This document shows positions 3,021-51,058 of a DNA stretch of 51,058 nucleotides, one piece after another. The notes under the pieces were generated by a model. The model was not told the origin of the DNA. It saw only the letters and a list, made by a program, of their open reading frames with translations, and did no database searches. The translations under genes and the position numbers were made by a program. Within the stretch, counting starts at the first letter, position 1, and every line of letters begins with the position of its first letter. Source of the DNA: a virus; IMG/VR virus record IMGVR_UViG_3300015203_000011, positions 1 to 51,058 of that record. The stretch is one strand, 5' to 3'.

Positions 3021-3362
3021 ATGAGAAACAGGATGTTCGATTTCACAGACCAAGCAAGAGCGGCATTAGGAAGCCGTAGAGAGTCTAGGACCTACCTCAC
3101 CCGTCTGGCAAGGCAATACGGCACCCCAGAGCCCACCCTGCGCTCCTACGGCCCCTCAAAGGGCGTTTCGGAGGTTGGGTTCTACAATCCAGTACTTCAC
3201 ACCATATTCTATCTGAGGGACCAAACCCCAGAAGAGACCGAAACAACTATACTTCATGAGTTCGTTCATGCAATCTACGATAGCAAAGGCTACGTAGAAG
3301 AACTTCACGGCCAAGCCTTCCACCTGACCCTGGCTCACCTACTAACCCAGGAACTGAAATGA
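3021..3362 (+). CDS. SprT-like zinc metallopeptidase domain protein
   Basis: Has HEFVH (HExxH) followed by HGQAF, the SprT-like pattern HExxH...HGxxF. Confidence 0.55.
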   Translation: MRNRMFDFTDQARAALGSRRESRTYLTRLARQYGTPEPTLRSYGPSKGVSEVGFYNPVLHTIFYLRDQTPEETETTILHEFVHAIYDSKGYVEELHGQAFHLTLAHLLTQELK

Positions 3363-3742
3363 CAAACTTTCGAAAAATCAATATAATGGAAAGTTCACCA
3401 ATAGAAATTCCATATATAGATCAAGCATGTAAAGAACTAAATATGCCCGTCTGCCCCACAAGATCTTTTCCAAAATTAAGAAAAATAGATAAAGAGGCCT
3501 TCTGCTGTGGTATGTTCGACCCAAAGTTCAATACAATTTTCATTTATGAGAACCTAAGTGAAAAAGAACGAAAGATCACAGCTATACACGAATTGGCACA
3601 TGCATTAGTTTATGCAAACGGAAGTACTTATGGGTATCACGGACCCGAGTTTCAGAAGGCTCTATCGCAAGTAGTAAAAACACAACCAGACATGAAATAC
3701 GATCCTTTTTGGGGTATGACATATGTACGGCCGACTAATTGA
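3359..3742 (+). CDS. SprT-like zinc metallopeptidase domain protein (paralog)
   Basis: Has HELAH followed by HGPEF. ATGA overlap with the upstream paralog. Confidence 0.6.
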   Translation: MTNFRKINIMESSPIEIPYIDQACKELNMPVCPTRSFPKLRKIDKEAFCCGMFDPKFNTIFIYENLSEKERKITAIHELAHALVYANGSTYGYHGPEFQKALSQVVKTQPDMKYDPFWGMTYVRPTN

Positions 3743-3928: not shown

Positions 3929-4474
3929 ATGAAAATAGGTTACGCTAGAGTAAGTACCGACAATCAAACACTCGACCCACAACTCGACGCCCTCAAAAAA
4001 GAGGGATGTGAAAAAATTTTTACGGATGTAGGTTCCGGAAAGAGATCAGATCGACCCGGACTCGAAGAAGCCGTCACGTCCGCGAGCACAGGGGATGTAA
4101 TCTGTGTAGTGAGGCTAGACCGCCTAGGCCGATCCTTACAAAACCTTACGGAAACTGTAACCAAACTTAAGGAAAAGGAAGTCGGGTTTAAAAGTCTCAC
4201 CGAATTAATAGACACAACCACTTCAACTGGAACACTCATGTTCCACATGTTAGGTTCGATAGCTCAATTCGAAAGAGATCTTATGAGAGAGCGTGTTATG
4301 GAAGGTCTAGAATCAGCACGACTTAGAGGGCGGGTAGGTGGCCGACGAATAACAGACCAATCAGCAAGATTAAACGTTCTAAATGCCGTACCAGATGAAA
4401 CGATTAAAGAAACCTGCCACCGTTTAGATATTAGTCGAGCAACCTACTACAGGATACTCAAGAGTGAAAAATAA
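3929..4474 (+). CDS. Small serine recombinase (resolvase/invertase family) with C-terminal HTH
   Basis: Has MKIGYARVSTDNQ, DRPGL, RLDRLGRS, FERDL..ER and a C-terminal ISRATYYRILK. AAGGAGG lies 6 nt upstream. Confidence 0.9.
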   Translation: MKIGYARVSTDNQTLDPQLDALKKEGCEKIFTDVGSGKRSDRPGLEEAVTSASTGDVICVVRLDRLGRSLQNLTETVTKLKEKEVGFKSLTELIDTTTSTGTLMFHMLGSIAQFERDLMRERVMEGLESARLRGRVGGRRITDQSARLNVLNAVPDETIKETCHRLDISRATYYRILKSEK

Positions 4475-6058: not shown

Positions 6059-6280
6059 ATGAAAGAAGTCGATGGAGAGAAGCTTAAAGAACAGATATTC
6101 TTAACAGAATTAGCATTAGATATCAACTACGCCGAATTAGAAGTAATATGTAAACATCTAAAAGAGTATAATTCATCCTCCTTAGCTAAAAAAAATCGAG
6201 ACTTCATGCTTAGGGTAAAAATAGCGAAAAATAATGCAAAGTTACAAAAACTAAAAACACTTCACGATCCATACGTATAG
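6059..6280 (+). CDS. Hypothetical protein
   Basis: 73-aa ORF. Confidence 0.5.
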   Translation: MKEVDGEKLKEQIFLTELALDINYAELEVICKHLKEYNSSSLAKKNRDFMLRVKIAKNNAKLQKLKTLHDPYV

Positions 6281-6296
6281 TAATACAAAAGATAAA

Positions 6297-6524
6297 ATGC
6301 TGATTAATGAACTTCCAGACCAACTAACTTTCGATGAGCTTGAATTGTTCATAGAAGACCTGCATTTTGAAGTGGAAGACTTTGATCGAAATCATGTAAT
6401 AGCATTTTGTTCACAGTTTCCCGAGTTGTATAGCATTAGTAATTCCCCTCAAATAGCACTGCGAGATAGCTTAGCCCAAGTCGAGAACTTCTTGTATACA
6501 ATTTATGGATTCATACCAAGTTGA
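6297..6524 (+). CDS. Hypothetical protein
   Basis: 75-aa acidic ORF. Confidence 0.5.
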   Translation: MLINELPDQLTFDELELFIEDLHFEVEDFDRNHVIAFCSQFPELYSISNSPQIALRDSLAQVENFLYTIYGFIPS

Positions 6525-7978
6525 AAAAAGTAAATGCCATACAACTAGATGCAGAAATATGTAAACGCTCATTTAAAGAGTTTGTTAAGGGGGCATGGCC
6601 TACACTTGAACCCGGAAAACCATTTGTTGATAACTTCCACATTGATGCGATATGTAATCATCTCGAGGCAGTCTATAATGGTGATATGAAACGTCTTGTA
6701 ATTAACGTTCCACCAGGGTTCATGAAAAGTCTACTTGTATCCGTAATGTTCACTGGATGGGTTTGGACGACCAAACCACACATGAAGATCGGTGTGCTTT
6801 GCTATAATGCCGCTCTTTCAGTAGATAGCCAAGAAAAATTAATGTCACTGATAGAAAGTGACTGGTATCAAATTAGGTTCGGTTCAGTATTCCAACCGAA
6901 CAAAGAAACATGGAACAAAACAAAACTGATAAATGATAAAATGGGAGTTCGTACTTCAGGAAGTCTTTATGGGTCATTAACGGGGAGACATTGGGACATA
7001 ATTGTAATAGATGATCCAATCAAAGCAGGCGATGCAATGGGTTCTGCGGGTGAGTTAAAGACCATGCTTGAAAAATGCTCTACGTCATTCATCGGCACTG
7101 TTCGTTCACGCTTAACAGATGCAAAAACCACATCAATCATTTTGGTGATGCAGAGATTAAGTGAAATAGACTTGAGTGGAGTTCTACTTGAATCAGGATA
7201 TGACCATCTCTGCTTCCCAGTCTACTTTGTTGAAGGTAGATACACTAGCAATCGTCTAGGACGGTATGATCCACGAACAAAAGATGGCGAACTCCTCTGG
7301 CCCGAAAGATTCCCAGAAGAACATTTAAAATCTGAACAACTTGCAATAGGGCCATATACATTTGCATCGCAATATCAGCAACAACCGATTCCGATTTTAG
7401 GATCGATCATTAAACGCGAATGGATACATTACTGGACCGAACTTCCCAGAAACCAAGTGCAAATGATTCAATCCTGGGACACTACACTCTCTAATTCCAG
7501 TACAAGTGACTACGTCGTAGGTCAAGTCTGGTTGAAACACCAAAGTGGATTTTACTTATTAGATCAAGTCAGAGCCCGAATGGATTTTGAACAAACTAAA
7601 AATGCCATAAAAATGCTTTCAGCGAAATGGCCTAAAGCCATGACCAAGTATATTGAAAATAAGGCATCCGGACCTGACGTAATCAACAGCCTCAAAAAAG
7701 AAGGCGTAATCGGTCTAATTCCGGTTAAGATCGGAAGTTCAGATAAGGAACAACGATTAGTAGCCGTAAGCGGCCTGTTCGCGGCCGGAAACGTTTTTTT
7801 ACCACCCGCAGATAAATGCAGTTGGGTGCTGGATTACGTAACAGAACTATGCGGCTTTCCTAAAGGTTCAAAGAATGACGACCAAGTGGATGCTACATCA
7901 CAAGCCCTAATACAATTACATAAACGATCTTTACATACTATAACAGAAAACCTTAGAAGCATGATGAGTTGGAGATAA
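6521..7978 (+). CDS. terL: Terminase large subunit
   Basis: ATPase-like VINVPPGFMKSLL and IIVIDDP, plus a C-terminal nuclease-like DDQVDATSQAL. It sits immediately upstream of the portal gene. TTG start. Confidence 0.85.
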   Translation: MKKVNAIQLDAEICKRSFKEFVKGAWPTLEPGKPFVDNFHIDAICNHLEAVYNGDMKRLVINVPPGFMKSLLVSVMFTGWVWTTKPHMKIGVLCYNAALSVDSQEKLMSLIESDWYQIRFGSVFQPNKETWNKTKLINDKMGVRTSGSLYGSLTGRHWDIIVIDDPIKAGDAMGSAGELKTMLEKCSTSFIGTVRSRLTDAKTTSIILVMQRLSEIDLSGVLLESGYDHLCFPVYFVEGRYTSNRLGRYDPRTKDGELLWPERFPEEHLKSEQLAIGPYTFASQYQQQPIPILGSIIKREWIHYWTELPRNQVQMIQSWDTTLSNSSTSDYVVGQVWLKHQSGFYLLDQVRARMDFEQTKNAIKMLSAKWPKAMTKYIENKASGPDVINSLKKEGVIGLIPVKIGSSDKEQRLVAVSGLFAAGNVFLPPADKCSWVLDYVTELCGFPKGSKNDDQVDATSQALIQLHKRSLHTITENLRSMMSWR

Positions 7979-7979
7979 A

Positions 7980-9401
7980 ATGACCGAAATCAAAAAGAAA
8001 ACCCCAGGCGAAAAAGTTAAACGTTTTAAACAACGTTTCGATAGTTACTCCAACCCATTGACCGGTATTGGTTTCGCAGGACGAGATAAACTTCTAGCTA
8101 GTCAATTCTACCGTACTGATAAAATGAACGACGATGTTCTAGAAAACATGTATCATGACAATGACATTGCCGCCCGCGTGTGTGATGCTATCCCAGACCA
8201 TATTCTTAGACAAGGCTTCGATATTATAGTTGGAACCGAAACCTATAGCGATGATCTAGAAGATCTTCGCGATAATAATGAAGACCAAGTAAAATATGCC
8301 GATCAAGTCAATAAATTATTGATGCAACTTGATGAACTAGAAGCAAAAGAAAAGATAACTGATGCACTAGTCTGGGCTAACGTATTCGGCGGTTGCGCTA
8401 TCTATGTAGGTGTAGATGACGGCCGAGCACAAGACCAACCTATTGATATGAATAACATTAAAAATGTTACTTTTCTAAAGGTTGTTGATAAGCGATACAT
8501 TTTCCCAACACAATTCTACGAAGACCCATTGGATCCTAAGTTTGCGCAACCTCTTATCTACACCGTGTTCCCAGCTAGTAACACTTTAGCAGATGTTACT
8601 TTACAGAATTACGAAGCTCAAGTCCACGAATCGCGTATCATTCCATTCTATGGGACTCGTACCTCCAATAGACGAAGTCGCGAAAATCGAGGTTGGGCAG
8701 AATCAATACTCCAAAAACTTGATGAGGTGCTTCGTCAATTCTCAGTCAGTTGGCAATCAACCGCTCACCTTATGCAAGATGCTGCTCAGGCAGTCTTTAA
8801 AATGTATGGTGTAGTTGAATCTATGAGTGCCAACATGCCAGACTACCGAGCTAATCGACTCGCTGATATGGACATGAATCGTTCAAACGTCAGAACCATT
8901 CTAGTGGATGCCGAACTAGGCGAAGATTTTAGACGAGATACCTACTCATTCAATGGTATTCCACAAATCCTCGAACTGTTCATGTCACGTCTCGCAGCGG
9001 CAGTCGATATTCCAGTGACCTTGCTTTTCGGTATCTCACCTGGCGGACTTAATGCCACTGGCGAAAGCGAAATGCGAATTTTCTACGATAGGATTAAAGC
9101 CGCCCAAAAATATAAGGTCAAACCAAAAATTGAATATATTCTTCGCTTACTTATGTTAGCACGAAAAGGACCAATGAAGGGCAAAGAGTTCGATGTATGG
9201 TCAGTAAGTTTTCCATCACCATGGCAATCAACGGATCTTGAAAAGAGTGAGATCCACAAGAATAAAGCCATGACCAAAAAGCTACTTGCTGAGGCAGATG
9301 CTATTGAACACGGACGAATTCCAGTACCGGGGGATAAACTATCCGCTCCACCAAATAACAAACCAATTCCTACGGACTTAAACGAAACATCTAAAAAGTA
9401 G
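7980..9401 (+). CDS. Portal protein (DUF1073-like)
   Basis: 473 aa, directly after terL, with portal-like composition. Confidence 0.75.
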   Translation: MTEIKKKTPGEKVKRFKQRFDSYSNPLTGIGFAGRDKLLASQFYRTDKMNDDVLENMYHDNDIAARVCDAIPDHILRQGFDIIVGTETYSDDLEDLRDNNEDQVKYADQVNKLLMQLDELEAKEKITDALVWANVFGGCAIYVGVDDGRAQDQPIDMNNIKNVTFLKVVDKRYIFPTQFYEDPLDPKFAQPLIYTVFPASNTLADVTLQNYEAQVHESRIIPFYGTRTSNRRSRENRGWAESILQKLDEVLRQFSVSWQSTAHLMQDAAQAVFKMYGVVESMSANMPDYRANRLADMDMNRSNVRTILVDAELGEDFRRDTYSFNGIPQILELFMSRLAAAVDIPVTLLFGISPGGLNATGESEMRIFYDRIKAAQKYKVKPKIEYILRLLMLARKGPMKGKEFDVWSVSFPSPWQSTDLEKSEIHKNKAMTKKLLAEADAIEHGRIPVPGDKLSAPPNNKPIPTDLNETSKK

Positions 9402-15083: not shown

Positions 15084-15567
15084 ATCCGCAGTTGTCATAA
15101 GTGACATTGATCGCGGATTTAATCAATACAAATCTTTGTTATACAAACTAGAAAAAAAACCTGCAGTTGTTACTATCGGTATTCTTGAAGAAGATGCCAA
15201 TAAAACTGAAGGTACTTCTGGAGCAAGACTTTTAGATGTAGCTATTTGGAATGAGTTTGGAACTTCAAAAATTCCCGCTCGATCTTTCATACGCGAACCG
15301 TTTGAACGACATGATCATTACGAAAAATTACAAATAAGTGTTTTGAAAAGATATCTCTCAGGAAATATTACATTAGAATCTGCTTTGAATATTGTCGGAG
15401 CAGCAGTAGTAAAATCCTTTAAGAAAAATATTTTTGATTTCATTGCACCAGAAAATGCTGTCAGTACGGTAGATAAAAAAGGATTTAATCATCCTTTAAT
15501 TGGATTAGGTTCACCCGACGGTGAACATCTCCTAAATGCAATAAATTATAGATTGGATAAGTTGTAA
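15076..15567 (+). CDS. HK97 gp10-like head-tail joining protein
   Basis: WNEFGTSKIPARSFIREPFE motif. The ATG at 15076 is preferred over the TTG at 15064. Confidence 0.55.
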   Translation: MPRSAVVISDIDRGFNQYKSLLYKLEKKPAVVTIGILEEDANKTEGTSGARLLDVAIWNEFGTSKIPARSFIREPFERHDHYEKLQISVLKRYLSGNITLESALNIVGAAVVKSFKKNIFDFIAPENAVSTVDKKGFNHPLIGLGSPDGEHLLNAINYRLDKL

Positions 15568-16169
15568 TGGATTGGTCAAGCATACGAACTGGAATAAAAG
15601 GATGGTTCGCAGGTGCGACAGGTCTTCCAGTAGTATGGATGAATGAAGCCAGACCCATGACTACAAAGCCAATGGGAATATTACAAATAATTTCCACTAG
15701 CGCATTTGGTCCAGACATAATTCAAAATACCTATATTGATACAAATCCAGTTGGAACTCCACCAACAATTATCGGGCAAGAAATCGTTACATCGGTTCAT
15801 GGACTTAGAAAAATTACAGTAAGTTGCATGGTAGTTTCACGAGATCAGACCTCAAACCACGATGCTCTTTATTACCTAGAACAAGCAAGAGGTCAACTGT
15901 ATAGACCTTCTCTTTTAGCACTATTAAAAACAGCAAATCTCAGTGTTTTGAATATGAATAATGCTATTAAAATTTCTGATGGTATCTTCCAAGATAGATA
16001 TGAGTCAAAAGCAGTATTGGATATTACATTCAGCACCGCAGAAAATCTGACCTTCGATGATGTGCAAGACAACAGCACCTATATTGATACCATCTCCCTT
16101 TCTTCAGAATTAGAAAACCCAGATGATGAGCAACTTGAATTAGATAATGCCATCATTGGAAACATTTAA
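15567..16169 (+). CDS. Neck / tail terminator candidate
   Basis: Position only. Confidence 0.35.
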   Translation: MDWSSIRTGIKGWFAGATGLPVVWMNEARPMTTKPMGILQIISTSAFGPDIIQNTYIDTNPVGTPPTIIGQEIVTSVHGLRKITVSCMVVSRDQTSNHDALYYLEQARGQLYRPSLLALLKTANLSVLNMNNAIKISDGIFQDRYESKAVLDITFSTAENLTFDDVQDNSTYIDTISLSSELENPDDEQLELDNAIIGNI

Positions 16170-37054: not shown

Positions 37055-37456
37055 CTACTCTTTTTCCAAGTTTTTGTCAAGTTTTGGTTTGATCCATCGA
37101 TCGTCGAGGTCATTTCTTCCGAAATGCGTTTGCACTGCGATGTTCATAAGATTGAAAAAGGCTGCATTTATGTGGGAACCAACTACCTTTTTACCATCTT
37201 CCAGCGTGTCTACGTAGGTGTCTTCCCCGCTATCCCAGGCTGCTAGGTGTCGCATTAAGGCAGCTTTGGATTGCATGAAAGAAATGCCTTTGAACCAATT
37301 ATGGCGATCGTAGCCCTTTTCTGAACCTGCTTCTAAAGGTTCTGCTAGCAATGCTAGCACTACCAAAGGGACCATGTCCAATTGGGCCTTTCCTTGGTTG
37401 TCTTTGCAGCCGCCGTGTTTCGTCTTTTCAATCTTAACTACGCGATTTTTTGTCAT
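37055..37456 (-). CDS. dATP/dGTP diphosphohydrolase N-terminal-like (DUF5664-like) protein
   Basis: Motifs DNQGKAQLDMVP, KGYDRHNWFKG, RHLAAW and GSHINAAFFNLMNI. Confidence 0.5.
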   Translation of the reverse strand: MTKNRVVKIEKTKHGGCKDNQGKAQLDMVPLVVLALLAEPLEAGSEKGYDRHNWFKGISFMQSKAALMRHLAAWDSGEDTYVDTLEDGKKVVGSHINAAFFNLMNIAVQTHFGRNDLDDRWIKPKLDKNLEKE

Positions 37457-37749
37457 TCTAAGGCATCTCGTGTGGCTTTTTCTTGTGTAATTAGTGGACT
37501 ATACTTTTTAATAACTTTTTCTAACTCTTCCTGAGCATGTTCAAATTCCCACATTTTGTCCTTTACTCTCGAGGAATGTATGTGAAAATCAGAATTTTCT
37601 TTAAAATACAGTTCTAGTTGCTCTCTGACTTTTTGTTTTGTATACTCGACCATGTCGGTAAAATTAGCAATTATATTTTCATACCCTTCTAGTTTTGTGA
37701 GTTCTTTTGATACTCTTTTTTTCATTTGATCAATCCCACCACAATACAA
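37453..37749 (-). CDS. Hypothetical protein
   Basis: 98-aa ORF. Confidence 0.5.
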   Translation of the reverse strand: MYCGGIDQMKKRVSKELTKLEGYENIIANFTDMVEYTKQKVREQLELYFKENSDFHIHSSRVKDKMWEFEHAQEELEKVIKKYSPLITQEKATRDALE

Positions 37750-38529: not shown

Positions 38530-39716
38530 TATTTTACTCCTTGAACGACCTTCCCTGCGTGAGAGATCATGATATCAATGGCATCCTGACCTTCTTTTCC
38601 ACTAGTATTCAATAGAATGGTTACATCTTCACTTTGTGGATTTTCATCTAAGTATTTATCCAAAGTTGTTAAGAAAACTGCGCGACCTTCGTAGGGGATA
38701 AAATTGTAATGTCCGACACTCTTTTCGGTTGATATTCGTTTGAAGACTGGCTTGAGAAAATCCATAAATTCTATACAATTTATACCTTTACGAGGTATGC
38801 AATCAATTAATAAAGTAAATTTTTCTGATTTTGGAGCTGTTACTGAAGCTTGTAAGGATTCATCCTTTAATAACTCAACTGGTGACGCAGTGACACCTGT
38901 TACTGCATTGGTCGGTAGTGACAGCTGCTTTGGGGGGTTTATGCCACTTGCAAGCTCTTCAAGTACTTCTGAAAGTTGTCGTTTATCTGTCATTTTCATT
39001 CCTTTGGTGCCTACCAGTACTGCCGCACACTGTCCAAACGCCCTACAACCACCTACTGGTGGGTCAAAATCTGAGGCGGTCTTGCCTTCAAGTTTAGCTT
39101 TTTGCATCTCTTTACAGTCATTCAAGACAAGACTAACATAGTTCATAACGAAAGGCAAGTCTGTTTCAATCTGCACAAGCCTTGATTCAGGTACGCCTGC
39201 GGTCTTGTAGTAAATCCATTTTAGGAATGCCTTTTCCTCTTGAAACTTTGAGAGTATGAAAGCGGCATAAATATTGGCTTGAATGTTGTTTTTTAGTGCT
39301 TGTGGGGTCAAAGCATAGTTGAAACTCTTGGTGGTCTTGTGGTCACAAACGTAGAGACCGCTATCATCCTTATAGAACATGTCGATGTAACCACCGAACT
39401 TAAATCCATCTTTTTCGAATACGAAACCTTGTTCAACTTTCGCCGTTCCTGGCTTTGGTAGGTGCTTGATGCCAGCAAGCAGCATCTGCCCGTACTTAGT
39501 GGATGGCTTGATTGGAATACCGTAATCTAGGTACTGTTCCAGTAATTTATGAAGATCCTGACCGCGCTTCGCAGCGAAGTTTTCTGGCTTTTCTCTCTTA
39601 TCTAGATACTTAAAAGCCCAGCAGATCTTGCACTGTCTATAGGTGCTTATCTGACTGGGACTGAAATAGTCTCGCTGAGACGCCTCTTGGTCAAGTATGG
39701 TTACATATTTACTCAC
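38529..39716 (-). CDS. PD-(D/E)XK (Cas4/RecB-like) nuclease, DUF2800-like
   Basis: FSPSQISTYRQCKICW, GGYIDMFY and VCDHKTTK, with a distal GGCRAFGQC cysteine pair. Confidence 0.65.
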   Translation of the reverse strand: MSKYVTILDQEASQRDYFSPSQISTYRQCKICWAFKYLDKREKPENFAAKRGQDLHKLLEQYLDYGIPIKPSTKYGQMLLAGIKHLPKPGTAKVEQGFVFEKDGFKFGGYIDMFYKDDSGLYVCDHKTTKSFNYALTPQALKNNIQANIYAAFILSKFQEEKAFLKWIYYKTAGVPESRLVQIETDLPFVMNYVSLVLNDCKEMQKAKLEGKTASDFDPPVGGCRAFGQCAAVLVGTKGMKMTDKRQLSEVLEELASGINPPKQLSLPTNAVTGVTASPVELLKDESLQASVTAPKSEKFTLLIDCIPRKGINCIEFMDFLKPVFKRISTEKSVGHYNFIPYEGRAVFLTTLDKYLDENPQSEDVTILLNTSGKEGQDAIDIMISHAGKVVQGVK

Positions 39717-40249
39717 ACTTCATTTCCCCAGCAGTCCCAACCTTCGGCCTTTTCTCTTGCGAATAGCTCGATTTTTCCTTGCATAGGAAACATTAATTCA
39801 ATACGTTTTCGTACTTCATCTGGTTTTTTACTATGCTCTCTTCTTTTTTCGCTAAGGAACTGTCGTATGTTCCTTGCACCTCGAGGTTTTGGAATACTTC
39901 CTTTACAGAAAACTAAACAAATCTCACATTCAGACATCGTGTAATAACCTGGATTTGGCCTCTCTTTATTCCAGATGAATGCAATAGTTTTATATTTAAA
40001 GCCCCATGAATTTCCTAACTCTATAGCTTCTTCGAGGTGGGGATTAGATGTCCACATAAATAGGATGCAGTTTTTTTCTGAGATTTCGGGTATTGGTAAC
40101 TTTTTTAAATCTGGGGTTGGCACTGTGGGATAGTGTACGAATGCACTACCCGTGCTTTCTTTTCCATTATGTTGGATACTGCCTTTATAGAACCATGGTG
40201 GGTCGGCGTAAATAACAGCATATTTTTTCTCTGGAAGTGCTGCAAACAT
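39713..40249 (-). CDS. MT-A70 family N6-adenine DNA methyltransferase
   Basis: VIYADPPWFY (DPPW motif). Confidence 0.85.
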   Translation of the reverse strand: MFAALPEKKYAVIYADPPWFYKGSIQHNGKESTGSAFVHYPTVPTPDLKKLPIPEISEKNCILFMWTSNPHLEEAIELGNSWGFKYKTIAFIWNKERPNPGYYTMSECEICLVFCKGSIPKPRGARNIRQFLSEKRREHSKKPDEVRKRIELMFPMQGKIELFAREKAEGWDCWGNEV

Positions 40250-47079: not shown

Positions 47080-48399
47080 CTAAAGTAACTTCGTAGCTAA
47101 TTCTGAGAGTTCTGAACGTTCGCCTTTATCGAGTTTTACATGGCCTGCAATCTTTTCATTTCTGAAACTGTTAACTACATGAATCAAACCATTATTAGTA
47201 GCATCTACGTAGGGATTGTCAATCTGTTCTGGGTCACCTGTAAGGATGATCTTGGTTCCTTCACCTGCTCTTGAGATAATAGTCTTCACTTCATGTGGCG
47301 TGAGATTCTGTGCCTCATCTACAATCATGTATTGTGAAGCGATTGACCGTCCGCGAATGTAGGTCAGTGGTTCAATTTGCATCAAGTTCAGATCAATGAG
47401 CTCTCTGTAACTTCTATTCCCCTTTTTGCTTCCCGGGTTTAGACCCATCAAAAACTCGACGTTGTCGAATATGGGTTGCATCCAAGGGTTCAATTTATCC
47501 TCAATCTCACCGGGTAGATATCCAATATCCTTGCCTAGAGGAAAAATTGGGCGGCTTACGAGCAATCTCAGGAATGTTCGTTCCTCTGCAACCTTTTGCA
47601 GGCCTGCTGCGATGGCTAGCAGAGTCTTCCCTGTACCTGCCTTACCTACTAGTGTTACTAGCTTAATAGAGTCATCAAGGAGTAGGTCTAGGGCGAACAG
47701 TTGCTCTTTATTCTTTGGTCTGATGCCCCAAGTAGCTAGTTTAGCCGTTTTGATTACACTAACACCATTTTCACTGCGTCTTGCAACTGCGGTATGGGAA
47801 GGATTCGTATTATCGGTAAGGATTACGAAGTCGTTGGGCGGAAGGTTTGCGAATTCCTTACCTTCTAGGCTACCTTGCTTGTAAAAACTATCGATTTTTT
47901 CTGTGGTGGCTAATTTTTCAGTAAATCCAGTGGGTAGAACATCAATTTCTACATATTTTGATTCGAAGTTTTCCGTTGGGATTCCTATGGCATCTGCTCT
48001 GATCCTCAGATTGGAGTCTTGGGTAAGGAAAACTACGGGTGTTTCCTTACTTTCATGGATGTCTAGAGCTACAGCTAATATGCGGGAGTCTTGTCCACGG
48101 TCGGATGAGATATCCAGAGGCAGCGTCTTGGCGGTTGTAGCGACTCGTAGAATGCCTTTATTGGGTAATTTTACGCCGGTTGAAAGGGAACCTTTTTCTC
48201 TAAGACCGTCAAGATTTCTGCTGATTTGTCTAGCGTTACGACCACGTTCTGATAGTTCTTTTTTGAAGTTGTCGATCTCTTCCACAACGTAAATAGGGAT
48301 TATTACAGTATGTTTTCCGAAGCTGAACATGGATGCTGGGTCGTGTAGTAGGACATTGGTATCCAAAACGAAGGTCTTAAGACTCTGTTTTTTAACCAT
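47080..48399 (-). CDS. PIN-domain / PhoH-like ATPase fusion (PhoH2/YlaK-like)
   Basis: PIN motifs VLDTNVLLHD and VVEEID. PhoH motifs GKAGTGKT and MIVDEAQN. Confidence 0.85.
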   Translation of the reverse strand: MVKKQSLKTFVLDTNVLLHDPASMFSFGKHTVIIPIYVVEEIDNFKKELSERGRNARQISRNLDGLREKGSLSTGVKLPNKGILRVATTAKTLPLDISSDRGQDSRILAVALDIHESKETPVVFLTQDSNLRIRADAIGIPTENFESKYVEIDVLPTGFTEKLATTEKIDSFYKQGSLEGKEFANLPPNDFVILTDNTNPSHTAVARRSENGVSVIKTAKLATWGIRPKNKEQLFALDLLLDDSIKLVTLVGKAGTGKTLLAIAAGLQKVAEERTFLRLLVSRPIFPLGKDIGYLPGEIEDKLNPWMQPIFDNVEFLMGLNPGSKKGNRSYRELIDLNLMQIEPLTYIRGRSIASQYMIVDEAQNLTPHEVKTIISRAGEGTKIILTGDPEQIDNPYVDATNNGLIHVVNSFRNEKIAGHVKLDKGERSELSELATKLL

Positions 48400-48419
48400 T
48401 TTTTCTCACCTCTGTCTAG

Positions 48420-48448
48420 ATACTATGCTCAAAATTCATAAAGTGCAA
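48420..48448 (-). promoter_or_regulatory. Promoter TTGCAC-17-TAGTAT
   Basis: Counted directly. GAGGTGAG and the ATG at 48399 follow. Confidence 0.55.
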
Positions 48449-48453
48449 GTGAT

Positions 48454-48483
48454 TTCCCCCTTTTTCGAAGAAAAAAGGGGGAA
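48454..48483. terminator. Hairpin terminator (bidirectional type)
   Basis: TTCCCCCTTTTT-loop-AAAAAGGGGGAA. Confidence 0.55.
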
Positions 48484-48498
48484 TTTCCGTTAGTGATA

Positions 48499-48714
48499 TC
48501 ACAATTTGTAGTCAATATATTCGTTAAATTCAATCAAATCTATGGCTTTACGGTGTTCTTTGGGCATATTTTCCATCATTGTTTGATAATATAAAAGTGC
48601 AAAAAACTCATCTACATTGCATTTTTGAAAATACTCTCTGTTTGGATCATCGGGGTTTTCTAGAGCATTTTTCAATAAATTTTCAATTTTTCGTTCCTGT
48701 TTGGTTTTTTTCAA
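48499..48714 (-). CDS. Hypothetical protein
   Basis: 71-aa ORF. Confidence 0.5.
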   Translation of the reverse strand: MKKTKQERKIENLLKNALENPDDPNREYFQKCNVDEFFALLYYQTMMENMPKEHRKAIDLIEFNEYIDYKL

Positions 48715-49177
48715 AGCGAGCTCCTGTTAAATTAGCACTATAATAATTAATATTTGTAATATTAGCCTCTAAAAAATTTGAATTCTTTAGATCGGAATAT
48801 TCGAAACTGGCGTTTGTTAAATTAGCCCCTTGAAAGTCTGCATTATGGAGTATTGACTGTTCAAAATTTGCATTTTTACAATTTGCATTTTCGAAATTCG
48901 TATCGATAAGAATAGCTAAATAAAAATTTGCATTTGTTAAATTAGCAGATGAGAAATTTGCATTTCTCAAAATTGACCCATAGAAATTTATTCCTGATAA
49001 ATCGGCACTGCTAAAATCTAATCCTTTTAAATCTTTACCTTGGAAACTCACGTTTTGCCAATTTGGCCTCCTAGATTTTGTTAATCCTGATTTTAAACAT
49101 TGTTGATGTATTTCTAGGGCATCAATCAATTCTTTTTTATCTGCTTCATCGCAGATTTGGTTTAGTGTTTTTTTCAA
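48683..49177 (-). CDS. Pentapeptide-repeat protein
   Basis: About 20 consecutive A(D/N)LxX-type pentapeptides (ADLSGINFYGSILRNANFSSANLTNANF...). Confidence 0.85.
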   Translation of the reverse strand: MKKTLNQICDEADKKELIDALEIHQQCLKSGLTKSRRPNWQNVSFQGKDLKGLDFSSADLSGINFYGSILRNANFSSANLTNANFYLAILIDTNFENANCKNANFEQSILHNADFQGANLTNASFEYSDLKNSNFLEANITNINYYSANLTGARFEKNQTGTKN

Positions 49178-49449
49178 AATAAGCTCCTAATTCCGGCGAT
49201 TACCATTTCGATCGCTATCACGGCAAGTATGAATCCCATGAAACGTTCTAGAGCATTCAACGCATCTTCACTAAAGAATCGTTGCAGCCTAAATGAGAGC
49301 CATACTACCCCGAAACTGGCTGTCATGGCTAACAGAATAGCTGCAATGCATATGAGGGCGTTGGCTGAGTGTAGGACGATGTAGGCTAGAACTCCAGGTC
49401 CGGCTAGTAATGGCATGGCTATTGGGGTTACTGGAGTGTATTTTTTCAT
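49174..49449 (-). CDS. MarC-family (UPF0056) membrane protein, C-terminal half only
   Basis: TPIAMPLLAGPG and ERFMGFILAVIAIEMVIAG match the second half of MarC-family proteins. It has its own AAGGAG site. Confidence 0.75.
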   Translation of the reverse strand: MKKYTPVTPIAMPLLAGPGVLAYIVLHSANALICIAAILLAMTASFGVVWLSFRLQRFFSEDALNALERFMGFILAVIAIEMVIAGIRSLF

Positions 49450-50176
49450 AATTTACTCCTTTTTGGGCAAATGTTTCTTTTCGGAGAGTTCTTGTATGGT
49501 CTCTTCAATTTGTTTAATAGTCTCACTGAAAATTTTACTTAGCCAAGGTTCGACATCCTTTTCCCTAGCTGTACTTTCCGTGTCTTTTTCTGTCATATTT
49601 ACTCCTTTTTGAACATTATATTGTTTTGTACATAGTTGAATAGATTTTCAACTTGTTGAAATGTAAAGTTACTTTTCATAAAATTTGCTCTTGCTGAAAT
49701 GATTGCAATATTTCCTTTTATGTAGCCTTTTGTATTGTCTATTCTATCTATTGCTGGAGAATCTGATTGTAAACTTGTATTTTTTTGATTTAGTTTTATT
49801 CCTAGAATTGGGCAGTATTCAGGAATACTAATATCTGATATTTCTATATTAAATTCTAAACCTAATCTTTTTGCTCGACCTTTAGCTCGTAAGAATATAG
49901 TTAGTGGTTTATCTTCGCGTATTTTTTTATGGTATTTGGAGCATGCTTTTTTAATTTCATCTTTATTATTTTTATAATATTGAATATTATAATTCTTACT
50001 TTTTTCTTTATTTTCTTGTCTCCACTTCATACCGTATAATTGTAATTTTTTAGTATCGTCAAGAGCTTTTATTGTTCTATTATGTAAATTAAAACATTCT
50101 CTGTGGTATAACCCGCAATGTTTTTTATCTTTTGTGCTCTGGTCTTGTATTTCTATCTTGCATAAATTACAAATTC
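49450..50176 (-). mobile_element. Insertion separating the two MarC halves (HNH gene plus 47-aa ORF)
   Basis: It lies between MLFP... (the end of the N-half) and ...TPIAMPLLAGPG (the start of the C-half). It is visibly more AT-rich than the flanking sequence. Confidence 0.6.
49453..49596 (-). CDS. 47-aa hydrophilic ORF, in frame with the MarC C-half (separated by TAA ATT)
   Basis: Product is MTEKDTESTAREKDVEPWLSKIFSETIKQIEETIQELSEKKHLPKKE. Confidence 0.3.
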   Translation of the reverse strand: MTEKDTESTAREKDVEPWLSKIFSETIKQIEETIQELSEKKHLPKKE

Positions 50177-50180
50177 TCAT
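49599..50180 (-). CDS. HNH (His-Me finger) homing-endonuclease-like protein
   Basis: Has an N-terminal Cys cluster and CPILGI...SPAIDRIDNTKGYIKGNIAIISARAN, typical of phage HNH endonucleases. Confidence 0.7.
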   Translation of the reverse strand: MRICNLCKIEIQDQSTKDKKHCGLYHRECFNLHNRTIKALDDTKKLQLYGMKWRQENKEKSKNYNIQYYKNNKDEIKKACSKYHKKIREDKPLTIFLRAKGRAKRLGLEFNIEISDISIPEYCPILGIKLNQKNTSLQSDSPAIDRIDNTKGYIKGNIAIISARANFMKSNFTFQQVENLFNYVQNNIMFKKE

Positions 50181-50455
50181 ATGTTTGACCTAGGAAAAAG
50201 CATCTGCAGTGCGATGAGGAACAGGATTATTCCGCCACTGATCTGTATGCTGTAGAGACCTAGACCCATGAAACCTAGCACTGTTGAACCTGCGATTGCG
50301 AAAAATAACATGATTCCTAAAGCTATTAAAAATTCTCTACGAATTAATTTTTGCGGGTTTACTTCATTTCGCAGTAGTACTAATAGCAAGGGGATGGCGC
50401 CGAGAATATCAATTACGAGGAACAGGGTTACTGCGAGTGGAAGTATTTCTTTCAT
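50177..50455 (-). CDS. MarC-family membrane protein, N-terminal half only
   Basis: LGAIPLLLVLL, then IQISGGIILFLIALQMLFP. The stop overlaps the HNH ATG (ATGA). The start is taken at the internal Met (MKEILPL). Confidence 0.75.
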   Translation of the reverse strand: MKEILPLAVTLFLVIDILGAIPLLLVLLRNEVNPQKLIRREFLIALGIMLFFAIAGSTVLGFMGLGLYSIQISGGIILFLIALQMLFPRSNI

Positions 50456-50459
50456 TTTA

Positions 50460-50624
50460 TTATTCCTCTTGTTTATCGAGATAGTAAGCATAGATTATTG
50501 AAATTAAAAGAAAGAGAGTTCCTTGGCAAAGCAGGCATGCTCTGTAGGTAAAGTTAAGATTCATATTTCCTAGAATCAATATTGCAGTCTCTAGGATAGC
50601 TAAAATCTTTAATATTGTTATCAT
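50460..50624 (-). CDS. 54-aa small membrane protein (not in ORF track)
   Basis: AGGAG upstream. Product is MITILKILAILETAILILGN...LFLLISIIYAYYL. Confidence 0.4.
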   Translation of the reverse strand: MITILKILAILETAILILGNMNLNFTYRACLLCQGTLFLLISIIYAYYLDKQEE

Positions 50625-50773
50625 TTCAACATCTCCTTTTTCTGTTTTTCTTCTACCTCGTGAATCCGTTGAGATTCCCTCTTTGTTTCTATAGCTTCGA
50701 TCTTGCTACGAACCGATCTCATTCCTACCATCCAAAGTAACCCAACTGCTGTGATACAAAAGAATGTTGCCAT
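50621..50773 (-). CDS. 50-aa small membrane protein (not in ORF track)
   Basis: Product starts MATFFCITAVGLLWMVGM... ATGA overlap with the next ORF. Confidence 0.4.
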   Translation of the reverse strand: MATFFCITAVGLLWMVGMRSVRSKIEAIETKRESQRIHEVEEKQKKEMLK

Positions 50774-50789
50774 GTTTCCCTCTAGATAT

Positions 50790-50819
50790 AGTATAACACT
50801 TCAAACTCATGAATGTCAA
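50790..50819 (-). promoter_or_regulatory. Promoter TTGACA-18-TATACT
   Basis: Reverse complement of 50814-50819 and 50790-50795. Confidence 0.55.
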
Positions 50820-50890
50820 TGGTTTGAAAGCCATAGAATAACACCTGAAAGACCTGTAAATGCTGCGAAAGCTACTATTATTGTTATCAT
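50816..50890 (-). CDS. 24-aa hydrophobic peptide (tentative)
   Basis: Product is MITIIVAFAAFTGLSGVILWLSNH. ATGA overlap with the junction ORF. Confidence 0.2.
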   Translation of the reverse strand: MITIIVAFAAFTGLSGVILWLSNH

Positions 50891-51058
50891 TTTTCGTTCC
50901 TTATTACGCAAACATCGTGAATTGCGTAATCAATATTACATTGTGGCGTATTTGGAGGTTTGTTGGCAAAGAGTTCTTTCAATTTTTCTTCGGCTTTTTC
51001 TAATGTTCGGTAAATGCCTAAACAATTTTCTTTTTGGTATTTCAAGTATTCCCATACT
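50887..51058 (-). CDS. 3' part of the junction-spanning 61-aa ORF (5' end truncated by the window edge)
   Basis: Same ORF as 1..113. Confidence 0.5.
   Translation of the reverse strand, partial: VWEYLKYQKENCLGIYRTLEKAEEKLKELFANKPPNTPQCNIDYAIHDVCVIRNEK
50960..51058. repeat. Terminal direct repeat copy 2
   Basis: Identical to nt 1-99. Confidence 0.97.

Follow-up and report, generated by a model that had tools for sequence, protein, structure and literature searches.

Near one end of a 51,058-nt stretch of viral DNA (IMG/VR record IMGVR_UViG_3300015203_000011, positions 1 to 51,058, referred to here as the window), the minus strand carries two short open reading frames (ORFs) that together correspond to a single membrane protein of the MarC/NAAT family, and between them lie two further ORFs, the first of which resembles an endonuclease gene. 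A first-pass annotation, made from the letters of the window, had described this arrangement as a MarC gene split into two separately translated halves by the insertion of an HNH endonuclease gene, and the elements from which that description was built (the halves and their coordinates, the 727 nt between them, the ATGA overlap, the TAA ATT spacer and the AAGGAG site) are all present in the sequence. In their order on the minus strand, with transmembrane segments abbreviated as TMS, the four ORFs are:

50177-50455, minus strand: MarC/NAAT N-terminal half (N-half), 92 aa plus stop, TMS1-3; matches Pfam PF01914 positions 2-92 of 203, E 1.5e-17
49599-50180, minus strand: PacI-like His-Me finger (ββα-metal) endonuclease-like ORF, 193 aa, by PHROG 3322, AlphaFold (AF2) and Foldseek
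49453-49596, minus strand: ORF47, hydrophilic, 47 aa, with its own AAGGAG site; weak match to PHROG 4937, E 0.0022
49174-49449, minus strand: MarC/NAAT C-terminal half (C-half), 91 aa plus stop, TMS4-6; matches Pfam PF01914 positions 113-203 of 203, E 7.6e-18

The gaps at the three junctions are 0, 2 and 3 nt, and the interval between the MarC halves is exactly 727 nt (49450-50176). The 51,058-bp contig that carries them is that of a tailed phage with a GC content of 40.5%, encoding terminase, portal, capsid, tape measure, family A DNA polymerase, helicase, primase and PIN-PhoH proteins. Because its ends (1-99 and 50960-51058) overlap by ~99 bp and a 50,703-bp contig from an independent Logan assembly (run ERR4837134) gives the same genome in circularly permuted form, the contig represents the whole genome, circular or terminally redundant and of roughly 50.7-51.0 kb; the Logan contig is 100% identical across the locus, and an assembly artefact was ruled out on these grounds.

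Two halves of a MarC/NAAT protein

By homology, the two outer ORFs are complementary halves of one MarC/NAAT protein, broken in its central hydrophilic loop. The N-half is encoded by positions 50455-50180 with its stop codon at 50179-50177, and it ends in ...IQISGGIILFLIALQMLFPRSNI (also given as ...SGGIILFLIALQMLFPRSNI); GAGGA lies upstream of its ATG at 50455, and an alternative ATG at 50491 would lengthen it to 104 aa. The C-half begins with MKKYTPVTPIAMPLLAGPG and has AAGGAG 7 nt upstream of its ATG at 49449, so that each half has a start codon and a ribosome-binding signal of its own, as had been proposed. The MarC relationship of the halves was borne out by their complementary matches to PF01914, which score 64.2 bits for the N-half and 65.1 bits for the C-half against a curated cut-off of 23.9 bits, and rise to 116 bits (positions 2-203, E 2e-33) when the halves are joined. 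The best NCBIfam match is to a YhgN-type model (E 1.4e-29), with a score below that model's cut-off, and the nearest intact MarC relatives, of 190-205 aa, are 36-42% identical to the split protein.

Alignment to these intact relatives places the break in the hydrophilic loop between ...SGGIILFLIALxM(I/L)F and P(F/I)xVP(I/L)AxPLxAGP. The N-half stops four residues past the conserved MLFP and the C-half begins five residues ahead of its conserved motif, leaving a central loop of ~9 residues compared with ~14 in the relatives, such that ~5 are absent. At positions that are at least 80% conserved among the other aligned MarC proteins (n = 46), the split protein keeps 39 of the 46 residues, and the other seven are conservative changes. 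Modelled by AF2 as one joined sequence, the halves give a helical bundle with a predicted local distance difference test score (pLDDT) of 85.9 and a predicted template modelling score of 0.76, in which the sole segment with pLDDT below 50, residues 95-100, is at the junction. A Kyte-Doolittle scan, which is crude, showed hydrophobic stretches that overlap one another and would fit about three TMS in each half, and the joined halves are thus predicted to have a six-TMS, 3+3 architecture.

Members of the MarC/NAAT family are single polypeptides of ~190-280 aa, whereas two ORFs of 92 and 91 aa are found here. NAAT/MarC proteins have 3+3 TMS that derive from duplication of a three-TMS unit, with a hydrophilic region between TMS3 and TMS4 (PMC4608589), and it follows from the position of that region that the cut separates the two repeat units. 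Direct BLASTP comparison of the N-half with the C-half was not significant (E 0.51), and the repeat relationship itself therefore rests on the literature.

The genes between the halves

The start codon of the 193-aa ORF overlaps the TGA of the MarC N-half as ATGA. The encoded protein matches PHROG 3322, annotated as "endonuclease" (E 3.4e-30), and gave nothing significant in Pfam, NCBIfam or a PDB sequence search. Its AF2 model (pLDDT 88.8) contains two strands and a helix (β142-146, β158-162, α163-170), and the best Foldseek match in the PDB is the restriction enzyme PacI (3ldy_A, probability 1.0, with a weak E of 0.028); the further matches, to Gme HNH, ScoMcrA, ColE7/E9 and EcoKMcrA, are all to His-Me finger nucleases, again with weak E-values. 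A profile of the family compared with PacI gave a marginal E of 0.074, with the motif DR.D..GY..N...N..K in alignment. In the phage protein the core motif reads CPILG...AIDRIDNTKGYIKGN..IISARANFMKS, in the family it reads CP.LG...S(L/I)DRID..KGYIKGN..(V/I)IS..AN..K, and the PacI stretch aligned to this family core is GVDRSDSFEGYSPQNARLACFICNRIKSN. Eight residues (D145, G152, Y153, K155, N157, S162, N166 and K169) are invariant among 42 homologs; of these, D145, G152, Y153, N157, N166 and K169, which include the Ω-loop Tyr and the Asp and Asn of the predicted metal-ligand positions, align to PacI ...DRSDSFEGYSPQN...CNRIKS.

The position of the catalytic His, at the end of the first β-strand, is occupied by Arg146, which is Arg in 41 of the 42 homologs and Lys in the other, and PacI has the same DR. 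Because Arg replaces the catalytic His, the canonical HNH families are excluded. PacI defines group 20 of the His-Me finger nucleases, which is mostly viral and lacks the catalytic His, a Tyr of the Ω-loop taking over its role (PMC5714182). The fold prediction and these alignments support identification of the ORF product as a His-less, PacI-type His-Me finger protein; of the HNH identity given in the first-pass annotation, the His-Me finger fold stands and the canonical HNH assignment does not.

In composition the nuclease ORF is the most extreme of the 77 ORFs of the genome, with a GC content of 26.4% (18.7% at third codon positions), the lowest of the set and ~2.8 standard deviations below the mean (mean 39.7%, standard deviation 4.7%). 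It is single-copy in this phage, and a paralog search of the phage genome gave no further copies of it, of ORF47 or of MarC. A large protein collection holds 166 homologs, all without a Pfam domain, and 159 phage records carry one; the homologs span many hosts, occur several to a genome and are free-standing between core genes. The foreign composition and this multi-copy, patchy distribution support mobility of the gene, and the sequence context supports a free-standing gene over an intron ORF; the nuclease and homing activities of its product are putative. A search of viral folds with the protein returned phage proteins, giant-virus proteins and T4-type proteins named "Srd / anti-sigma factor". 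As a side observation, the T7-like Ralstonia phage DU_RP_I (NC_047888) has four free-standing copies of the family (6230-6646, 8888-9181, 15387-15836 and 37187-37555); in the same phage (20552-22011; 11736-13874) the annotation shows the major head protein gene as two pieces flanking an unrelated "endonuclease VII" gene, and the DNA polymerase likewise as two pieces.

The insert as a whole had been described as AT-rich, and in 200-nt windows its 727 nt have 23-30% GC compared with 41-46% in the MarC halves. This AT-richness is confined to the nuclease ORF, since ORF47, at 37.6% GC, resembles the rest of the genome. ORF47, a singleton in a collection of 15 billion proteins, ends in ...PKKE* and is in frame with the C-half across TAA ATT. 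The frame relationship was correctly noted in the first-pass annotation, but it is probably a coincidence, because it is not conserved in the second split locus described below and would be expected by chance in one case of three. ORF47 is also bracketed by the only two exact copies in the 51-kb genome of a 15-nt sequence, each copy supplying both the terminal codons (KKE*) of the ORF before it and the ribosome-binding site of the ORF after it:

49597-49611, minus strand: exact 15-nt direct repeat CAAAAAGGAGTAAAT, copy 1, at the end of the nuclease ORF and the ribosome-binding site of ORF47
49451-49465, minus strand: exact 15-nt direct repeat CAAAAAGGAGTAAAT, copy 2, at the end of ORF47 and the ribosome-binding site of the C-half

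The repeat may have been left behind by recombination when one of the two cassettes was inserted.

A second split locus and its surroundings

The same division of MarC was found on a 1,671-bp metagenome contig of the Joint Genome Institute (JGI), Ga0137460_1004876, referred to as L038, whose gene order is pentapeptide-repeat gene, ORF79, MarC N-half, ORF77, MarC C-half. The features of this contig that bear on the comparison are:

L038, 3-470, plus strand: pentapeptide-repeat gene
L038, MarC N-half: 93 aa; Pfam PF01914 positions 3-92, 74.4 bits
L038, MarC C-half (P0244): 88 aa; Pfam PF01914 positions 109-202, 41.4 bits

The break lies at the same position in the loop (...LSMLFRKEE*, then MIKDPILVPIA...), stop and start codons are overlapping or closely spaced, and the 227-nt gap between the halves is fully coding, being occupied by ORF77. 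No HNH gene and no detectable remnant of one lies between the L038 halves, and ORF77 (77 aa) could be related neither to the nuclease family nor to ORF47, nor to any family in Pfam or PHROG; the possibility that it is a decayed HNH gene was considered on account of a faint 14-aa BLAST match (E 0.057) and rejected, as the match was unsupported by the family hidden Markov model, Pfam or PHROGs. The first-pass annotation had named, as evidence that would overturn its reading, homologous phage genes that occur naturally as two with no HNH gene between them, and L038 provides such evidence in part. Phage and L038 proteins are 46% identical in the N-half and 40% in the C-half. Among 79 MarC proteins each is the nearest neighbour of the other, and the two pair as a cherry in a neighbour-joining tree, where bootstrap values are 52% for an exact sister pair and 71% for their placement together in a clade of at most four. 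In both, the central loop is short, the TM4-5 loop carries a deletion and a GAIP motif is present.

That a MarC gene is unusual in a phage, as had been suggested, was confirmed by its presence in 3 of 50,697 phage records (by tblastn; distant, intact and of low quality) and at 10 loci in IMG/VR, all 10 of which are uninterrupted single ORFs. MarC is likewise uninterrupted in all of the best 80 matches in cellular genomes. Intact homologs had been proposed as a means of defining the insertion point, and the aligned relatives served that purpose, but no such homolog turned up in a related phage: cultured phages searched at the DNA level gave nothing relevant, a scan of IMG/VR with the joined MarC protein gave nothing, and scans anchored on neighbouring genes gave 21 PhoH loci, none with MarC, and no primase relatives. 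The terminase is at most 39% identical to that of any cultured phage, which indicates that there is no close cultured relative, and all five MarC-cluster proteins recovered from the 15-billion-protein collection lie solely on this phage's own contigs. The same-site comparison that could be made is that with L038, the only related locus, which has no HNH gene yet is still split and has another ORF in the gap.

An exhaustive search with the C-half gave many short matches. Among ~30 that were inspected, most start at a conserved internal Met (MIFP or MLFP), and three that were looked up lie at contig starts. Since they begin at an internal Met or at contig starts, these matches are taken as fragments and were rejected as natural half-size MarC genes, P0244 on L038 being the only genuine half-gene among those inspected. 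A degenerate DNA pattern for the lineage-specific peptide GPGV[LI]A[YF]I[VL][LV]HS found nothing in IMG/VR and only L038 in the JGI metagenomes. The best cellular matches, 36-42% identical, come from Enterobacterales, Chlamydiota, Chromatiales and others, and because they are both distant and taxonomically scattered, no donor can be named. It may be added that the closest cellular relatives (contigs L036, 4437-5614, and L037, 1621-2798) have two tandem full-length MarC paralogs of 195 and 197 aa that adjoin methionine aminopeptidase, on contigs carrying Legionella_OMP porins. There are hints here of a Legionellales- or Chlamydiae-like source of MarC, with no donor named.

Around the split gene, the following features were recorded in the phage genome:

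48683-49177, minus strand: pentapeptide-repeat gene, 164 aa; Pfam Pentapeptide, E 4e-45; 29.9% GC
50790-50819, minus strand: sigma-70-like match from a consensus scan (TTGACA, 18 nt, TG-TATACT; 11/12)
50460-50624, minus strand: small ORF directly upstream of the MarC N-half, 54 aa, hydrophobic
50621-50773, minus strand: small ORF upstream of the preceding one, 50 aa, with a hydrophobic N-terminal segment
40249-40758: peptide deformylase gene
39713-40249: MT-A70 methyltransferase gene
3929-4474: resolvase-type recombinase gene
3359-3742: gene for a SprT-like protein

The TGA of the C-half overlaps the TTG start of the pentapeptide-repeat gene as TTGA, and the four ORFs of the locus together with this gene look like a single translationally coupled transcription unit. 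The sigma-70-like match lies upstream of the small ORFs and the MarC cluster and, as a consensus match from a scan whose match count was no higher than in shuffled controls, could be the promoter of all the co-oriented genes; from this promoter-like match down to 48400 the minus strand has no terminator-like site. The two small ORFs, which lie downstream of the promoter-like site, may encode small membrane proteins co-expressed with the transporter halves. A pentapeptide-repeat gene stands near the split MarC at both loci, directly downstream in the phage and two genes upstream in L038, and the association may be conserved. The last four genes listed carry these names from Pfam tags on the Logan gene calls.

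Origin of the split and comparison with known systems

The explanation to which we give somewhat better than even credence is that of an old two-piece MarC with variable cargo between its halves and a nuclease that came later. A MarC/NAAT gene would have been cut once, before the phage and L038 loci diverged, between its two homologous three-TMS repeat units, leaving TMS1-3 and TMS4-6 as separate polypeptides made from one transcript. Translation would be coupled through overlapping or near-abutting stop and start codons, with the C-half also using its own AAGGAG, and each half would enter the membrane on its own and pair with the other to give the usual six-helix fold, in the manner of a heterodimer of half-transporters. 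Both halves would have been kept intact, conserved and coupled since the divergence, and the gap would hold variable cargo, namely the PacI-type nuclease gene and the resident ORF47 in the phage and the unrelated ORF77 in L038. The nuclease gene would be a mobile, homing-type element that arrived after the split and is kept at low expression by coupling to the N-half.

Comparison of the two loci suggests that the split is probably old, kept by selection and not caused by this nuclease. It probably predates the nuclease gene, because L038, the nearest relative, has the same cut and no HNH gene, and the nuclease gene is probably the later arrival, because it alone has a foreign composition, that of ORF47 being in line with the genome. 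That the two-piece protein works is at present best supported by the conservation and coupling of both halves in two lineages. It is also tentatively proposed, at somewhat less than even confidence, that the phage-borne MarC lineage has been stable as two three-TMS halves since an ancient split, their gap being a recurrent landing site for a turnover of unrelated cargo, a PacI-type mobile nuclease included.

The causal claim of the first-pass annotation, that the gene was split by the HNH insertion, has to be weighed against this. A nuclease gene does lie between the halves, but its role as the cause is doubtful given that L038 is split without one. If this nuclease gene, or a direct ancestor at the same site, nevertheless made the split, L038 would go back to that event too, with the endonuclease since lost or replaced there, and the gene would have stayed split since precise re-fusion is unlikely; this we hold to be unlikely, if still a serious contender. 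The endonuclease ORF sits exactly at the break with an ATGA overlap, and the break falls between the two most conserved MarC motifs, SGGIILFL and P.A.PL.AGP, in keeping with the tendency of homing endonucleases toward conserved target sequence. The nuclease family looks mobile, and homing endonuclease genes decay and are lost after fixation. There is also precedent in genes split by free-standing endonucleases, such as mobE in nrdA of phage Aeh1 (PMC2988022). Against this, L038 retains no detectable HNH remnant, ORF47, with its resident composition, is placed between the nuclease ORF and the C-half, and the nuclease gene is strongly foreign in composition whereas the halves are at 40-46% identity to those of L038, which would make it much younger than the split.

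Two further explanations were considered. Insertion might have inactivated MarC, leaving the halves as decaying, functionless pseudogene fragments, a course of events that fits an accessory gene dispensable for the phage and the shortened central loop. It is nonetheless very improbable, as each half is an entire ORF with a start codon and a Shine-Dalgarno signal, the protein keeps 39 of 46 conserved positions, Pfam scores are strong for half-length sequences, the joined AF2 model is confident, and a second lineage, 54-60% diverged, has both halves open, conserved and translationally coupled. Alternatively, the 727 nt could be a group I or group II intron with an endonuclease ORF that is spliced out, as the first-pass annotation had allowed for group I, or a split intein could ligate the halves. 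HNH ORFs are common in phage group I introns, and a cellular MarC interrupted by a group II intron does exist: on contig L023 (6001-7122; European Nucleotide Archive ERZ1742238 NODE_1158), MarC (P0070, 145 aa) ends just after PILVPIAVPAIA and is followed by an ORF with RVT_1 and GIIM domains, consistent with a group II intron inserted in MarC, at a site that differs from the phage split. We regard splicing of either kind as scarcely credible here. Scanned permissively against Rfam (E up to 10), the region 48000-51058 returned noise and no intron family, as did L038, whose 227-nt gap had no match; since the ORFs fill the 727 nt to within 2-3 nt of the junctions there is no space for a ribozyme core, the L038 gap is fully coding, and the C-half has its own ribosome-binding site and ATG, such that an intron was ruled out. 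A split intein would bring an N-intein of ~100 aa and a C-intein of ~35-50 aa ending in HN before Cys, Ser or Thr; it was ruled out as well, because the halves total 183 aa, about one MarC, and have neither intein-sized segments nor terminal motifs.

Several points weigh against the favoured history of an old split and a later nuclease. An uninterrupted MarC allele in a close relative was not found in the collections searched. L038 is the only other split locus found, on a contig of 1.7 kb whose viral origin is unproven, and the moderate bootstrap support for the sister group leaves two independent splits at the same loop as a possibility. At 40-46% identity synonymous divergence (dS) is saturated, and for this reason purifying selection is argued from the retained ORFs and motifs and not measured. 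The T4-like relatives of the nuclease are annotated as Srd "anti-sigma factor", and PacI is the sole member of the family known to have been assayed. Lastly, the history offers no explanation for the 15-nt repeat that brackets ORF47.

In mechanism, the locus groups with the phage genes-in-pieces, which include nrdA of Aeromonas phage Aeh1, divided by mobE, and the T4 topoisomerase gene 39/60, divided by mobA (PMC2988022). The closest precedent is gene 43 of Aeromonas phage 25, in which seg43(25) may have invaded an existing split (PMC2988022). As in those systems, a gene that is contiguous in its homologs is divided into two separately translated ORFs, a free-standing gene of the His-Me type lies between the parts with no intron or intein, the endonuclease gene has no promoter of its own and a start codon that overlaps the upstream stop codon, and the parts would be expected to reassemble without covalent joining. 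The T4 nrdA/mobE junction has an overlap of the same ATGA type, and the coupling is thought to limit endonuclease expression (PMC2988022). The present case differs in that the divided gene encodes an integral membrane transporter, where the earlier examples are soluble enzymes of DNA metabolism (PMC2988022), in that the division coincides with the border between the units of an internal 3+3 TMS repeat, in that the enzyme is predicted to be of the His-less PacI type and not a Mob-type HNH protein, and in the presence of a second small ORF (ORF47) in the gap. It differs also in having a related locus that is split with no endonuclease gene, which leaves a causal role of the endonuclease doubtful.

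Compared with R.PacI (3ldy/3m7k, group 20; PMC5714182), the phage protein has the predicted ββα-metal fold, no catalytic His and the conserved loop Tyr, with the motif DR.D...GY...N......N..K aligned residue for residue and N-terminal Cys/His pairs; the group is mostly viral and includes giant-virus proteins. Unlike R.PacI, it has a long helical N-terminal region and is not part of a restriction system. With regard to MarC/NAAT proteins (PF01914; TC 2.A.95; E. coli YhgN, YchE and MarC; SnatA), the split protein has full profile coverage, the conserved motifs and the predicted six-helix 3+3 fold, and it stands apart in being two polypeptides, phage-borne, shortened in the central and TM4-5 loops and only 36-42% identical to intact members. 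Half-size transporters are familiar from prokaryotic UPF0016/CaCA2 proteins, in which neighbouring genes encode two three-TMS polypeptides thought to form a six-TMS unit, and such pairs are regarded as a pre-fusion state. The MarC halves are unlike them, as each is homologous to the N- or the C-repeat of fused MarC and nests among the fused proteins, which argues that the MarC split is secondary.

A literature search turned up no previous report of phage membrane-protein genes split in this way. What is new in the locus is the combination of a membrane transporter gene from a family itself rare in phages, a cut at a repeat boundary, a probable PacI-type nuclease and a split conserved in a second lineage with different cargo. 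If the reading of a lineage stable in two halves is true, the locus would be the first integral membrane transporter documented as a gene in pieces, and a natural experiment in which a fused 3+3 transporter has reverted to a heterodimer of its repeat units; present in two diverged lineages, the split transporter would serve as a natural test of 3+3 TMS assembly from separate halves. For the uncharacterised but widespread PacI-like, His-less nucleases of phages, the locus provides a setting inside a conserved gene and suggests a concrete target, the reconstructed intact MarC allele. More generally, it indicates that an endonuclease found within a split gene need not have caused the split.

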